Positions 2,823 to 6,577 of a DNA stretch of 17,752 bases are shown piece after piece; the stretch's first letter is position 1; each line of letters opens with the position of its first letter. Both the position numbers and the translations under genes were made by a program. The notes under the pieces were generated by a model, which did not search any database, was not told the DNA's origin, and saw only the letters and a list, made by a program, of their open reading frames with translations. Source of the DNA: a virus; IMG/VR virus record IMGVR_UViG_3300032668_001907. One strand, 5' to 3'.

Positions 2823-3026
2823 TCACTGCTTCGACTGACCAGTCTTCTTCGCCACACACACCATTCTCGGTATTTCTGAGAACGTCAGATCATGCACTCT
2901 GTGCCATTCAGACACGATGCCACACTTACGACAAGTATCATCCTGTTCGAGGAGCTTAACAATACTGTCGCCTCTCGTGCTGTATTCGTCTAGTTTATGC
3001 ATGTTCACTTTCGTATGTAGTGCCAT
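2823..3026 (-). CDS. Hypothetical small protein (67 aa)
   Basis: ORF in the track. It overlaps the 3' end of the metalloprotease gene by 22 nt in another frame. Confidence 0.3.
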   Translation of the reverse strand: MALHTKVNMHKLDEYSTRGDSIVKLLEQDDTCRKCGIVSEWHRVHDLTFSEIPRMVCVAKKTGQSKQ

Positions 3027-3556
3027 CGATCTGTGTCAAAACGCGTGGGTCGACGTGCTGCACAACCGATGTCCTTGCACATGAGCGTCCCGTCGCAGGA
3101 GTGTTCGAGTCCCATGGCATGCCCAATTTCATGAGCGAATGTGATGACCATCTGGTCAGGCGTGTAGTCCTCATTCGCGTAGATGAACTGCCGGACAGTG
3201 ACGTCAGCGTGGCCCGTGAAATCGTTCCACACCGTCTTCCCCAGAGGTGAGAACTCCCCGCCTGGGTGGATGCAGATCTCCCTAGGCTCGTAGGTGCACT
3301 GCGTGATCCTCACCTCGTCGAACGGCTTGTCGTAAGGCAGTGCCTTCTCCCAATCAGAGATTGCCTCCTCTATCAGTGCGATGTCAGTGCTCGAGAATGC
3401 AGGGTCGATGTCTACGTTGTAGGAGCTCGGCGGCTTGTCGACTGGCTTCATCCCCTCGACGAGGCACACGGCGCCGCCGCAGCTCGCGAGCACCGCGACA
3501 GTCATGAGCGCCAGCGTCACCCTGCTCGGTGATTCACAACGTTCCCTTCTTTTCAT
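3005..3556 (-). CDS. Secreted lipoprotein zinc metalloprotease of the metzincin type (HEIGHAMGLEH motif with a Met-turn; snapalysin- or matrixin-like small protease)
   Basis: The N-terminus MKRRER-hydrophobic-LASC-GG has a bacterial lipobox (L-A-S-C). HExxHxxGxxH followed by ...GTLMC (a Met 7 residues after the third His) is the metzincin signature. Confidence 0.8.
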   Translation of the reverse strand: MKRRERCESPSRVTLALMTVAVLASCGGAVCLVEGMKPVDKPPSSYNVDIDPAFSSTDIALIEEAISDWEKALPYDKPFDEVRITQCTYEPREICIHPGGEFSPLGKTVWNDFTGHADVTVRQFIYANEDYTPDQMVITFAHEIGHAMGLEHSCDGTLMCKDIGCAARRPTRFDTDRWHYIRK

Positions 3557-4221
3557 TCACATGCACCCACGTCCAATGTATTGGATGGCCTAATACGTTG
3601 GTCTAAAGAGTTATCTTGGGCCAACGTGGGAGCCGTGGTGGCCAATTTAGAGGCCTTATGGGCTGCCCAATAAGCTTTGACACCTTCACTGATATTCTTA
3701 CGTGATTCTAGCGATCTTTTTTGTCCACGTAACGTTTTGCTGAGATTTGCTTTTTCTACGTCTGAAAGACGTCGCTTTGATGCAGCAATCGAAAGTCGTT
3801 GACGCGTTATTTCACTACGTTTTTCTCCCTTACATTTTCTTTGCGCATCAGCCATTCGTTTTCTTGTGAATTCAGAAGGAGGTTCGCGTCTCCGTCGTTT
3901 TTCGCTCATTTTGAGTTTAGATTCAGGACTAGCGTTTAATACGCCTTCGCCTCCATCAGTCAAATTCGATCCCCAGTGACCCTCAAGACCATGGTGAGTT
4001 TTCAACAGTGCAATCAATTCGACTTCACGGTCAAGTGCCCATCGTTCAACGAGCGTCTCAAAAACGATGATGCGTTTCTTGTGGCCGTGTTTTGCAACAA
4101 TATTCTTCCAAATCACGTTACGAGGTTTGACATTTTTCAGACGTCGCTTGTTGCCCTTTCCAACATAGAAAGGTCGATCATCACTTGTGATATCAATGTA
4201 AGTGTAATAACGTTTGAACAT
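3553..4221 (-). CDS. Free-standing GIY-YIG homing endonuclease with NUMOD3-type repeats (I-TevI/Seg-like)
   Basis: The N-terminus from the ATG at 4221 reads MFKRYYTYIDITSDDRPFYVGKG...R...E...N.TDGGEG, i.e. GIY...YVG plus the conserved R/E/N. The C-terminal half has repeated S-PE/-K--K-L-S-A--KR motifs. It is translationally coupled (TGATG overlap) to the upstream gene. GC is lower than the surroundings. Confidence 0.85.
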   Translation of the reverse strand: MFKRYYTYIDITSDDRPFYVGKGNKRRLKNVKPRNVIWKNIVAKHGHKKRIIVFETLVERWALDREVELIALLKTHHGLEGHWGSNLTDGGEGVLNASPESKLKMSEKRRRREPPSEFTRKRMADAQRKCKGEKRSEITRQRLSIAASKRRLSDVEKANLSKTLRGQKRSLESRKNISEGVKAYWAAHKASKLATTAPTLAQDNSLDQRIRPSNTLDVGACE

Positions 4222-4631
4222 CACGTTTCTTCCATTCCCTTCTCTGCCATGATCTCCTTGAGAAGGTTTCCCAACTCGACGTATTTTGAACCGAGAGTCA
4301 CGATGTCGACCTTGCTGAGTCGCTTCACGTCGTAGGAACATACGTACTTGGGACGCTTTGTGCCGAGACCAAAGAAGTCGAACACAGGTTGCAGTTGAAC
4401 GTATCCCTCCTTCTCGCGAAGTTGGACGCGCTTGCCGTTGAAGTCGCGATAGATACGTACACTCCTCCTGTACCTGCGACCTGCTACTACCTTGACGTAC
4501 TCTTCCTCGGGTTTGACAGGGACGGGCGCATGCTCACGCACGATCCTGTAGATCTCACCGCCCCAGCTCGCAGCTCTGACACAGACGAAGTCACCCTCAG
4601 CTAGGTTGTATTCAGCGAGCGTGCGTGTCAT
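4221..4631 (-). CDS. Hypothetical protein (136 aa)
   Basis: ATG ORF whose stop overlaps the HEG start. It lies in the same leftward operon. Confidence 0.5.
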   Translation of the reverse strand: MTRTLAEYNLAEGDFVCVRAASWGGEIYRIVREHAPVPVKPEEEYVKVVAGRRYRRSVRIYRDFNGKRVQLREKEGYVQLQPVFDFFGLGTKRPKYVCSYDVKRLSKVDIVTLGSKYVELGNLLKEIMAEKGMEET

Positions 4632-5265
4632 TCTCTTCCTCGATGATGTGTGACCATTTCTTCATGAGCTCAGTTCCCACCGCCTTTTCCATCAACAACT
4701 TGCTTTCTGCGCTGATCCCGACGGGCGTGGATCGCTTGCCAAATGCAGATCGTAGCCAAGATCGAAAAGATGACAGCCTCGATTGCGTGCGTGTGATCAA
4801 CCATCTGATGCCCTTCCATATCATCTTAACCCATGCAGGCCCGGAATTGCATCTCCTGTCGAGCCATGTTTCCATGCCCGGGTACTTGTAGTCAAGGTAG
4901 AAGATTCCTCCGACAGGTATCGTCATGGGTTGGATTGAAACGAGTTGTGGAGCACGTAGTAGTGGGAACGTACTCCTGACGAGAGGAAGCGCGAATTGCC
5001 CGAAGCCAGTGAAGTGCTTCGGTTCCTTACTCCACAACACGGTGATCTGCCTTACAACATTACTTTCGTACTCCACGGCAATGACGATGCCGAGGGAGCT
5101 GCGGTCGCCAGTGTGGGCAATCGTCCCCGCGTGGTACACCCAGTCACCGGGCGTGAGCGTGTTTCCTGCGTCCTTCGGATCGAAGTGACAGATGCAGGAT
5201 GGATGATCGTACCTGGTGAAAGGCGTTTCTACGTCAGGCCTCGTGTACGTCTTGAGCGAGCTCAC
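4612..5265 (-). CDS. Hypothetical protein (217 aa), member A of the small beta-barrel paralogue family. Motif: TPGDWV...GIVIAVEYESNVVRQITVLWS.
   Basis: A GTG start overlaps the upstream stop (GTGA). Its N-terminus MSSLKTYT matches paralogue D (SQLKTYT). It shares the family motif. Confidence 0.6.
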   Translation of the reverse strand: MSSLKTYTRPDVETPFTRYDHPSCICHFDPKDAGNTLTPGDWVYHAGTIAHTGDRSSLGIVIAVEYESNVVRQITVLWSKEPKHFTGFGQFALPLVRSTFPLLRAPQLVSIQPMTIPVGGIFYLDYKYPGMETWLDRRCNSGPAWVKMIWKGIRWLITRTQSRLSSFRSWLRSAFGKRSTPVGISAESKLLMEKAVGTELMKKWSHIIEEENDTHAR

Positions 5266-5568
5266 TTTTTCTTCTCTTCTGGGATGTCAAGTACGTTGAT
5301 TGTCCCGTAGAAATCCTTCCTAATCTTGGATTTCTCGTAGCGAGGAAGGATCCCTTTCCTCATTGTGAAGACGTTCGGATCGAACCACAACGCTAGCTTT
5401 GGGACAGTCGACCACAACACGCTGATGTTTGTGGCATCCAAAGACGTGACAATGCCGAACGCTTCCTCATCCTGACTGTGTATGACAAGCGCGCCTGGAA
5501 CGAGCGGCTTACCATCCACCACGATGAGAGGATGTGAGTCTGTTTCGTAGATGCGTAGCTCACCCATC
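5262..5568 (-). CDS. Hypothetical protein (about 101 aa from ATG), family member B (VPGALV...GIVTSLDATNISVLWS)
   Basis: ATG at about 5568 preceded by GGAG. The track extends it to a TTG at 5588. It overlaps the upstream gene's stop by a few nt. Confidence 0.55.
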
Positions 5569-5865
5569 CTTTTTCTCCACGATCGCAAGCAGGTCTTTCA
5601 TGATGTCTGCGTCGATCTGTTCTCGGATCTGCTCTGCTGCATTTGCGTTGACCCTCACGAGCAATTCAACGGGTATCGTCCACATGACATTTGCGGTCTC
5701 TGACTCAAGATCAGATGAGATGACGATGCCGTAAGAATCTGTCTCGCCCTTGTCCCGTTGAGACGTACCGAAGAACACCATGTCTCCCGGGAGAGGTACG
5801 TAGTCCTTTGTGAAGGGCTCGTACGCTTCCTGAAGAAACCTGAACTCTTCGGTGGTGAACTTCAT
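5560..5865 (-). CDS. Hypothetical protein (about 101 aa), family member C (LPGDMV...GIVISSDLESETANVMWT)
   Basis: The ATG at about 5865 forms an ATGA overlap with the stop of the upstream gene. The track ORF 5560..5925 includes an out-of-context N-terminal extension. Confidence 0.55.
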   Translation of the reverse strand: MKFTTEEFRFLQEAYEPFTKDYVPLPGDMVFFGTSQRDKGETDSYGIVISSDLESETANVMWTIPVELLVRVNANAAEQIREQIDADIMKDLLAIVEKKDG

Positions 5866-6176
5866 GTTTTCTTTTCGATGCTGGAGTCGAGCGCTGCCTC
5901 GAGATCTTTCGACGAAAGATTCCAACCAGAAGCAGACCTGAAGTCCTCCGCTGACTCAACTGTCCACGTAGCATCAAGCTTCCGTGACGTTGAGTTGATG
6001 CTCCACAGGACAGTGATCTGATACTCATCGTTCCTGTCAATTGCGATGACTAGTCCTTGGACGTTGTCGTACCGGTGCTTGACGGCATCGCCAGGCTTTG
6101 CGTCGAGGGCGATGACAGACGCTTCGTCGGTCACTTCATCGAACTTGAACCCGGTGTACGTTTTGAGTTGACTCAC
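5862..6176 (-). CDS. Hypothetical protein (about 104 aa), family member D (KPGDAV...GLVIAIDRNDEYQITVLWS)
   Basis: The GTG at about 6176 forms a GTGA overlap with the upstream stop and is preceded by AGGGGGA. Its N-terminus (M)SQLKTYT matches paralogue A. The track ORF to 6308 (GTG) is probably over-extended. Confidence 0.55.
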   Translation of the reverse strand: MSQLKTYTGFKFDEVTDEASVIALDAKPGDAVKHRYDNVQGLVIAIDRNDEYQITVLWSINSTSRKLDATWTVESAEDFRSASGWNLSSKDLEAALDSSIEKKT

Positions 6177-6493
6177 TCCATCCCCCTGCGCTTTGCTTCT
6201 TCGAGTATGACATTGTCGAGCCTCGTCCTCATCGTTGCTAGCTCCAGGAGCGTGACGTGGTGCCATCCTGACGGCGTCATTGTCTGCGTACGACACATCA
6301 CAGGCCACATGAAACCGACAGTGTCAATGACCGGGTCAAATGTGAAGTGATGCGTGTGCCTTAGGTCCCGGCGCGTCGATGCTTCGATGTGCGTTAGCCT
6401 GTAGATCTGACCGGTGTGATCACGATCGTACAGTTCATTCAGGAAGAACTCCCTGCCGTCGTACTCCCCACTCAGAAGGCTTTCTTCATCCAT
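6173..6493 (-). CDS. Hypothetical protein (106 aa), the first gene downstream of MVP
   Basis: ATG with GAGGT 9 nt upstream. Same strand and operon as MVP. Confidence 0.55.
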   Translation of the reverse strand: MDEESLLSGEYDGREFFLNELYDRDHTGQIYRLTHIEASTRRDLRHTHHFTFDPVIDTVGFMWPVMCRTQTMTPSGWHHVTLLELATMRTRLDNVILEEAKRRGME

Positions 6494-6520
6494 CTGTGAT
6501 ACCTCAGTTCATCATACGGC

Positions 6521-6555
6521 ATCGGGCCGCGAAGGACATGCCCCCGCGGCCCGAT
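6521..6555 (-). terminator. Perfect GC-rich hairpin (11-bp stem ATCGGGCCGCG/CGCGGCCCGAT, 13-nt loop) immediately 3' of the MVP gene. Putative partial terminator or attenuator.
   Basis: The inverted repeat is seen directly, and it sits 23 nt after the MVP stop. There is no strong U-tract on the minus transcript, so it is probably leaky or a processing/stability element. Confidence 0.45.
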
Positions 6556-6577
6556 GACTTTCATCGTGGCGTGTCGA

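Follow-up and report, generated by a model that had tools for sequence, protein, structure and literature searches.

Capsid-derived peptides and major vault proteins in phages

In phage T4, the most conserved part of the capsid protein gp23 is a 29-residue stretch in its first quarter, termed Gol, which binds domains II and III of EF-Tu (PMC3014915). This binding is the sole activity known for the stretch as an isolated peptide, and a general interaction between gp23 and EF-Tu has been proposed (PMC3014915). A comparable segment is found in a tandem array of small genes, here called A to D and flanked by genes g1 and E, that lies downstream of a gene for a homologue of the major vault protein (MVP) in the viral sequence IMGVR_UViG_3300032668_001907 (17,752 nucleotides, hereafter the window). 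The tail of protein D aligns to residues 96–135 of T4 gp23, a stretch that includes the Gol region. Whereas the T4 motif resides inside a full capsid protein, in the array it forms part of a separate, selected gene product and is carried by a domain of its own. The array phages, moreover, come from bog-lake metagenomes, and the binding of D to EF-Tu is putative, by analogy with T4.

Additional genes derived from a major capsid gene are also represented in T4 by gp24, a complete paralogue with the HK97 fold; A–D are likewise additional derivatives, but retain only single short segments. Genes in pieces made by endonucleases offer a further comparison, with the split nrdA of Aeh1 and gp39/gp60 of T4 as examples among T4-like phages. 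As in those cases, several small, neighbouring open reading frames (ORFs) stand for one T4-type gene in a region rich in GIY-YIG endonuclease genes. The pieces in Aeh1 and T4, however, sum to a whole and reassemble, whereas the array keeps only segments of about 35–55 residues, which are non-collinear and each attached to a paralogous extra domain, and the real capsid proteins resembling the tails are intact. An endonuclease-split gene in pieces was thus rejected, as the fragments do not make up a whole protein. T4 gene 60 is itself mentioned in the literature on Gol (PMC3014915).

With eukaryotic vault cargo, such as the INT domain of vPARP and TEP1, the array has in common that small proteins are encoded beside an MVP homologue; it differs in having no sequence or structural similarity to vault-associated domains and in its loose linkage to MVP. 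Homologues of MVP have been described in two gut phages, where the genes lie outside the structural modules (Santos et al., bioRxiv 10.1101/2023.11.10.566534). The gene upstream of the array likewise belongs to the phage MVP homologues and has both shoulder and repeat domains. In a term search of that text, no passage on MVP-neighbouring small proteins or capsid fragments was found (10.1101/2023.11.10.566534). Neither chimeras of capsid fragments nor small proteins beside MVP are described in the literature searched, which included a term search of a comparative jumbo-phage paper. A vault-type MVP gene in a phage is already known, and the architecture of the array appears, as far as we can tell, to be undescribed.

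Capsid segments on a shared carrier domain

Judged by sequence comparison, A–D are chimeric mini-proteins, in which a common N-terminal carrier domain is followed by a peptide of about 35–55 residues from one conserved segment of a gp23-type capsid protein. The genes and their parts are as follows.

A, 6176..5862, minus strand: gene with GTG start, 104 residues
A carrier domain, 6000..6176, minus strand: residues 1–59, MSQLKTYT...PGDAV...GLVIAID...ITVLWS (alignment A2, BLASTP)
A tail, 5862..5999, minus strand: INSTSRKLDATWTVESAEDF... and stop; gp23-type strand before the spine helix, Mel-JY01 capsid protein 304–339
B, 5865..5560, minus strand: gene, 101 residues
B carrier domain, 5677..5865, minus strand: residues 1–63 (alignment A2, BLASTP B–D 4e-5)
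B tail, 5560..5676, minus strand: ...AAEQIREQIDADIMKDLLAIVEKK and stop; capsid spine helix, about 340–360, a weak match
C, 5567..5262, minus strand: gene, 101 residues
C carrier domain, 5409..5567, minus strand: residues 1–53 (alignment A2, BLASTP)
C tail, 5262..5408, minus strand: ...FDPNVFTMRKGILPRYEKSKIRKDFYGTINV and stop; gp23-type capsid C-terminus, Mel-JY01 capsid protein 504–536
D, 5265..4612, minus strand: gene with GTG start, 217 residues
D carrier domain, 5029..5265, minus strand: residues 1–79 (AlphaFold2 model; alignment A4 of 52 D-family proteins)
D tail, 4867..5028, minus strand: FALPLVRSTFPLLRAPQLVSIQPMTIPVGGIFYLDYKY; most conserved gp23 N-terminal motif, T4 gp23 96–135
D C-terminal extension, 4612..4866, minus strand: W/R-rich and helical, CNSGP...MIWKGIRWL...SSFRSWLRSAFGKR and stop

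In every unit the tail begins right after the VLWS that closes the carrier domain, and each unit bears a different capsid segment. A tblastn search with the 542-residue major capsid protein (MCP) of Microcystis phage Mel-JY01 gave three matches in the window, all within the array and directly after VLWS, namely D (MCP 75–122, E 1e-10), C (MCP 504–536, 1.5e-6) and A (MCP 304–339, 0.08). When a five-sequence MCP hidden Markov model (HMM) was run against the 372 six-frame ORFs, the same three proteins ranked first (D 3.6e-15, C 1.7e-5, A 0.012). Motifs of the gp23-type family (PF07068) are present in D, C and A, and the Pfam Gp23 (T4 major capsid protein) matches to D (1e-6) and A (3e-4) agree with PHROGs. 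The D-family tail was aligned to T4 gp23 by a PDB profile search, and the C tail, which carries the C-terminal strands, is matched by hhalign with a probability of 96.5% and an E value of 7e-10. The A tail carries the RKLKAxW strand of the capsid protein, with further matches to the PHROG major head protein (E 0.003), to the custom MCP HMM (E 0.007–0.012) and, for the A-type profile, by hhalign (E 0.0026). The B tail is matched only by hhalign (E 0.013), on the spine helix that follows the segment of A, and is kept in the B-type orthologues of related contigs L017 and L025; its identity as the capsid spine helix is suggestive rather than established.

The complete HK97-type fold, of about 450–540 residues with E-loop, P-domain and A-domain, is absent; single segments of about 23–50 residues match within proteins of 101–217 residues. 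Jointly the fragments cover about 150–200 of some 540 capsid residues, approximately a third, and they are not collinear. No further capsid pieces were detected by tblastn or the MCP HMM in the window or its 36-kb parent contig. In the real MCPs closest to the tails (P0230, P0234, P0241 and others), the N-terminus is an ordinary propeptide, and the carrier domain is missing. Thus, D is not merely a truncated capsid gene, and the carrier stands in the place of the propeptide. The first-pass annotation had treated these genes as paralogous small barrels throughout, and the capsid nature of their C-terminal halves, which it did not contain, alters what the proteins are likely to be.

Other origins for this arrangement were considered and rejected. 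The carrier domain is not the propeptide of the capsid protein, as the MCPs that match the tails have ordinary ones. Inteins or split inteins do not account for it, given that no Hint or intein Pfam match was obtained, the domain ends in VLW-S/T, and the capsid pieces neither are complete nor follow the order of the capsid protein. An intron-split capsid gene was similarly dismissed, owing to the lack of more capsid pieces in the window or the 36-kb contig and of any Rfam intron.

The carrier domain itself comprises about 55–80 residues (MSQLKTY...PGDxV...GIVI...VLWS). A motif shared by all four proteins had been noticed earlier from the sequence, and it is borne out by alignment A2, in which D, P, G, V, G, V, V and W are invariant, as well as by pairwise BLASTP (A–C 6e-5, A–D 9e-5, B–D 4e-5, C–D 5e-5, B–C 4e-3), where only the A–B pair is not significant taken alone. 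The N-terminus LKTYT reported for two of the genes is that of A and D, which begin S(Q/S)LKTYT. The small β-domain proposed for the family also fits the AlphaFold2 model of D, built from the 52-sequence alignment (mean predicted local distance difference test score, pLDDT, of 76; the single-sequence model scored 38 and was unusable). Residues 1–78 are predicted to be β-rich, with six strands and block-mean pLDDT of 73–92. The capsid-like tail at residues 80–130 is modelled without secondary structure (50–65), and is followed by helices at 131–140, 144–175 and 186–216, with block means of 81–95 over 131–170. The W/R-rich extension that contains them is kept in L025, L027 and many D-family members.

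A fifth member of the carrier-domain family, without a capsid-like tail, lies elsewhere in the window and was found with the domain HMM among the 372 ORFs (E 0.0035).

F, 10543..10803, minus strand: free-standing carrier-family member, PGDIV...GMIIALDDTGMTYVLWS

An exhaustive profile search with the four-sequence domain alignment retrieved, besides A–D of the window, one outside relative, P0018 of contig L017, in which an A-type and a C-type unit are joined in one ORF. Large repeat proteins with PGDxV...G.V-like repeats from the domain profile search were dropped as spurious after inspection of their sequences.

Conservation and selection

The window is contained in a 36-kb Logan contig and in several contigs of the Joint Genome Institute (JGI) from the same phage. 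Orthologous arrays occur in L017, L025/L026, L027, L028 (a 341-kb scaffold) and L029; jumbo phages of about 340 kb from at least five diverged lineages thus share the array, which is conserved and selected in this clade. It is also plastic, as the order and number of units vary, from A-B-C-D in the window to B-A-C-G-D in L017. The full order in the latter is g1'-B'-A'-C'-G'-D'-E'-E', where G' is an extra unit with MCP 483–514.

With a D-family profile, 107 proteins were obtained; domain and tail are both present in over 50 of them, which are about 105–232 residues long. Between lineages the D tail is 58–61% identical, as against 46–48% for the D domain, and the tails are in general at least as conserved as the domains. 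For the D tail, the nonsynonymous distance (dN) is 0.3–0.55 and the synonymous distance (dS) is saturated, with about half of the identical residues encoded by different codons. This low dN relative to a saturated dS, along with the differing codons, argues that the constraint falls on the peptide and not on the DNA; by these codon comparisons, the D tail is under purifying selection at the protein level.

The gp23 N-terminal motif is also found on unrelated carriers, including a different SH3-like domain (P0247), a hydrophobic N-terminus (P0239) and a zinc ribbon (P0262). In P0260 it accompanies a propeptide-like and SH3-like region with a W/R-rich tail, and in P0236 a weak IF2_N-like segment (E 9e-4, below the cut-off). 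By this recurrence, the motif behaves as a portable module. A scan of IMG/VR with the D-family alignment gave matches essentially limited to the capsid-like part of the query, as would be expected of ordinary capsid genes, and a scan with MVP alone gave none.

Together, these comparisons document a conserved and apparently undescribed architecture, in which a small carrier domain is joined to a single capsid-protein motif. They also show that the best-conserved stretch of gp23 forms a portable module and is selected in its own right. Databases label proteins of this type, if at all, as Gp23 fragments. The array thereby provides a handle on the old questions of what accounts for the strong conservation of this stretch of gp23, and of whether the capsid proteins of T4-like phages bind EF-Tu as a rule.

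Possible functions of the array proteins

The favoured reading, given a probability of roughly 0.4 and drawn by analogy with T4, is that the array proteins are soluble mimics of linear motifs of the capsid protein, with D a probable EF-Tu binder and A–C showing other motifs to other partners. Their genes, in a block with many genes for translation and folding, would probably be expressed early from host-type promoters. The carrier domain would keep an otherwise unfolded capsid peptide soluble and present it to the factors that normally recognise this motif in capsid protein that is nascent or not yet assembled. EF-Tu would be the most likely partner of D, whose role could be that of a translation modulator or of a competitor in Lit-like surveillance. 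Possible partners of A–C include the phage chaperonin, assembly partners and host capsid sensors.

The D tail is homologous to the Gol region of T4 gp23 by the D-family profile, and the Gol residues, 93–122, overlap its match. The EF-Tu reading is favoured because D keeps a Gol-like stretch under selection outside the capsid fold, because its tail is modelled as disordered between a confident domain and helices, and because independent fusions of the gp23 N-terminal motif recur on other carriers. It is further favoured by the content of the surrounding block in the related contigs, which holds homologues of IF-1/eIF-1A (E 1.5e-22), of the C-terminal domain of L7/L12 (1e-8) and of methionine aminopeptidase (2e-51), along with the chaperonin Cpn60. 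An AAA ATPase and a Metallophos phosphoesterase are also encoded in the block. These genes are located at L020 1–9000, L024 3060–3449, L025 10608–11348 and L028 14392–20516. Early expression is supported by an extended -10 element upstream of the MVP gene and by the lack of a T4 late-promoter motif in the window.

promoter-like site, 9277..9304, minus strand: extended -10 TGTATAAT, a consensus match only
T4 late promoter, TATAAATA: no occurrence anywhere in the window

Several points weigh against this reading. The early timing is deduced from consensus motifs alone, and the link to EF-Tu is an analogy with T4. The analogy covers only D and supplies no partner for A–C, and partner binding is putative for all four proteins. 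The capsid homology is weak for B, as its E value indicates, and moderate for A. The phage's own MCP gene is absent from the 36-kb contig, so that the tails were compared only with MCPs of other contigs. Nor does this reading account for the conserved nearness of the array to MVP. Finally, the A-type domain of L017 is cut by a 1-nt frameshift that is the same in three assemblies (ENA, Logan and JGI), which argues that not every unit is indispensable. The frameshift lies at 680–720 (GAT GCA TGG), where the N-terminal half is joined to the B-type ORF and an internal ATG opens the remainder; an obvious slippery site is lacking there.

A broader form of the same analogy, considered unlikely, holds that stand-alone effectors have evolved in this clade of jumbo phages from conserved linear motifs of the phages' own capsid protein. 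The Gol-like D would retune or protect translation through EF-Tu, and A–C would act on the chaperonin or on host sensors of the capsid, with an MVP shell possibly around or beside them. If true, the contact between Gol and EF-Tu would be a general, selected function rather than an oddity of T4 and e14.

Among the alternatives, the one that survives best, although it too is unlikely, holds that the peptides are accessories of capsid assembly, docking on the capsid protein of their own or a rival phage by strand or helix complementation. Their roles could then be those of chaperones or timers of assembly, of minor head proteins or of dominant-negative poisons. In favour of this, the tails correspond exactly to the segments at the conserved core of the HK97-type fold, the gene for a phage chaperonin lies in synteny, and S-x-E follows the domain in many units, a sequence that resembles the prohead-protease cleavage motif of phiKZ-like phages. 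The genes, however, reside in a small non-structural block with a sigma-70-like promoter-like site and not in a head module, and the fragments are strands integral to the fold, not docking arms of a known kind. The repeated fusion of the N-terminal motif alone to unrelated carriers also suits an autonomous motif better.

Immune decoys are a somewhat more doubtful proposal, in which the displayed motifs would occupy host sensors, such as Lit-like proteases or CapRel-like or STAND proteins, without activating them. Bacterial sensors of capsid proteins are known (for example, PMC9712102), the motifs are the most conserved and hence the most sensor-worthy parts of the capsid, and the promoter-like site is of an early type. 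Known sensors nevertheless mostly read folded capsid protein, and a Gol-like peptide would be expected to trigger Lit rather than block it. No homology to defence or anti-defence proteins was found, in searches that did not include the PADLOC library.

Relation of the array to the MVP gene

The gene upstream of the array encodes an MVP-like protein with repeat and shoulder domains, for which all Pfam matches are above the cut-offs. More than 2500 homologues were retrieved at E < 1e-20, the top ones being 60–82% identical. Its 3' end is separated from g1 by 84 nt, and this gap contains a hairpin.

MVP-like gene, 9262..6578, minus strand: 894 residues; Pfam MVP_shoulder 5e-25, Vault_3 3e-8, Vault 1e-6
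GC-rich hairpin in the gap between MVP and g1, 6520..6556, minus strand: 12 perfect pairs, extendable to 16, without U-tract

The first-pass annotation had regarded the small proteins as candidate partners or cargo of a vault, tightly coupled to MVP and made with it in fixed stoichiometry. On that view, binding of the carrier domain to the MVP shell would bring the proteins, and perhaps capsid protein attached to them, into a vault-like particle. MVP and the array do share one conserved block, with Metallophos, IF-1 and Cpn60, in the window, L025/L026, L027 and L028. Several D-family and MVP matches sit on equally long contigs, and no U-tract terminator intervenes between MVP and the array. 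Tight coupling did not hold up, however, as a strong GC hairpin follows directly after the MVP stop codon in all five lineages examined (window, L024, L025, L027 and L028), its position kept and its sequence different, and as other genes lie between MVP and the array in relatives. These are methionine aminopeptidase and T4_Y16D in L025, Band_7 and AAA in L027, and several ORFs in L028; an endonuclease-like ORF also counts among the intervening genes. The hairpin resembles a terminator or processing element, although it has no clear U-tract, and could alternatively stabilise the mRNA. The promoter-like site belonging to MVP itself likewise weighs against a tight link, and fixed stoichiometry with MVP is not plausible.

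The linkage is also dissociable, with the distant huge phages LR756500 and LR756501 having MVP without the array, and L029 having the array without MVP within 7.4 kb upstream. Pfam, PHROG and structural comparisons of g1 and A–E gave no match to any known vault-associated domain, and a role as cargo leaves the capsid-fragment tails unexplained. The cargo role is thus unsupported and, on balance, improbable; on present sequence evidence A–D are neighbours of MVP and not demonstrable parts of a vault. This corrects an attractive account of bacterial and phage vault cargo, and provides a context for phage MVP genes, which have a promoter-like site of their own, are followed by a hairpin of conserved position and lie among genes for translation and folding.

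Should MVP have a partner among the small proteins, a better candidate by position is a protein of about 100 residues (...PGDVV...LVLSR..G.PGE...SRHG...) that directly follows MVP in L025 (9763–10095) and L028 (6979–7290). It occurs in L027 (8498–8785) after Band_7 and AAA, and is missing from the window. In L027, a 646-residue SPFH/Band_7 protein (1.8e-25) and an AAA ATPase occupy 5102–8456, directly after MVP. Since large cage-like assemblies are formed by SPFH proteins as well as by MVP, their pairing in L027 may be meaningful. Three independent assemblies of the L017-type phage (L017, L018 and L019) all break just upstream of g1', which suggests that MVP is separated there from the array by an element that is variable or repeated. 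In contig L024, which comes from that sample as well, the MVP gene is followed by an endonuclease-like ORF at the contig end.

Gene organisation and neighbouring genes

The units A–D are enclosed by g1 and E and followed by two further genes on the same strand.

g1, 6493..6173, minus strand: 106 residues, g1/E family, outside the A–D family
E, 4631..4221, minus strand: 136 residues, g1/E family
GIY-YIG endonuclease gene, 4221..3553, minus strand: 222 residues
small metzincin, 3556..3005, minus strand: 183 residues

The gene lengths match JGI gene calls on independent contigs. As described earlier, the small genes 3' of MVP lie on one strand with overlapping stop and start codons, the junctions being GTGA (g1/A), ATGA (A/B), ATGGGTGA (B/C, 8 nt) and GTGA (C/D). 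The start of E overlaps D by 20 nt, and the endonuclease gene overlaps E by 1 nt. Every array gene ends in TGA, and each next gene is in a different frame, which points to coupling and not read-through; stop-codon recoding or read-through was rejected on this basis. The overlapping codons make the translational coupling proposed among A–D plausible. No U-tract consensus terminator was found on the minus strand from 2900 to 9600, which includes the small genes, so that co-transcription of g1 through E and beyond is plausible.

E follows D in all lineages examined. Together g1 and E form a separate second family, as seen in an alignment of 14 g1/E-type proteins from six loci, and g1 has no Pfam match. 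The two families are kept apart, since hhalign matches the carrier domain to the g1/E family only at E 0.013 and on the PGD...G motif alone.

Functionless debris, left when small mobile ORFs and homing-endonuclease activity broke up a duplicated capsid gene, is the least probable account of the array and is excluded for D and unlikely for C, for while three GIY-YIG genes in the window, the shuffled units and the L017 frameshift would suit it, the ORFs are intact and coupled across lineages only 35–60% identical, the dN of the D tail is far below its saturated dS, the tails are no less conserved than the domains, the D profile has more than 100 matches, and the non-collinear fragments do not sum to a capsid protein.

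The three GIY-YIG/NUMOD3 homing-endonuclease genes in these 17.7 kb lie at 3553–4221 (minus), 9427–10053 (plus) and 15313–16008 (plus), and match PHROG 314 with E values of 3.5e-11, 2e-29 and 3e-33. In L017, a homologous endonuclease follows the array on the opposite strand. The last of the three adjoins a tRNA-Thr gene (anticodon TGT) at 15224–15297 (minus), identified by ARAGORN and Rfam (72 bits). The metzincin-like protease (HEIGHAMGLEH; Reprolysin_5 6e-7) has an N-terminus that resembles a lipoprotein signal (VLASCGG). Its gene overlaps the endonuclease gene by 4 nt and is also retained behind the array in other contigs of this phage.

Additional small ORFs with PGDxV...G.V-type motifs lie on the minus strand between 10065 and 13523. 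The PGDxV-type ORFs are at 10543–10803 (F), 10800–11021, 11018–11287, 12293–12925 and 12967–13284, and small β-domain families thus seem to be expanded in this phage. The sequence VLDSxTMRTGWIY is common to the ORFs at 12967–13284 and 13320–13523.

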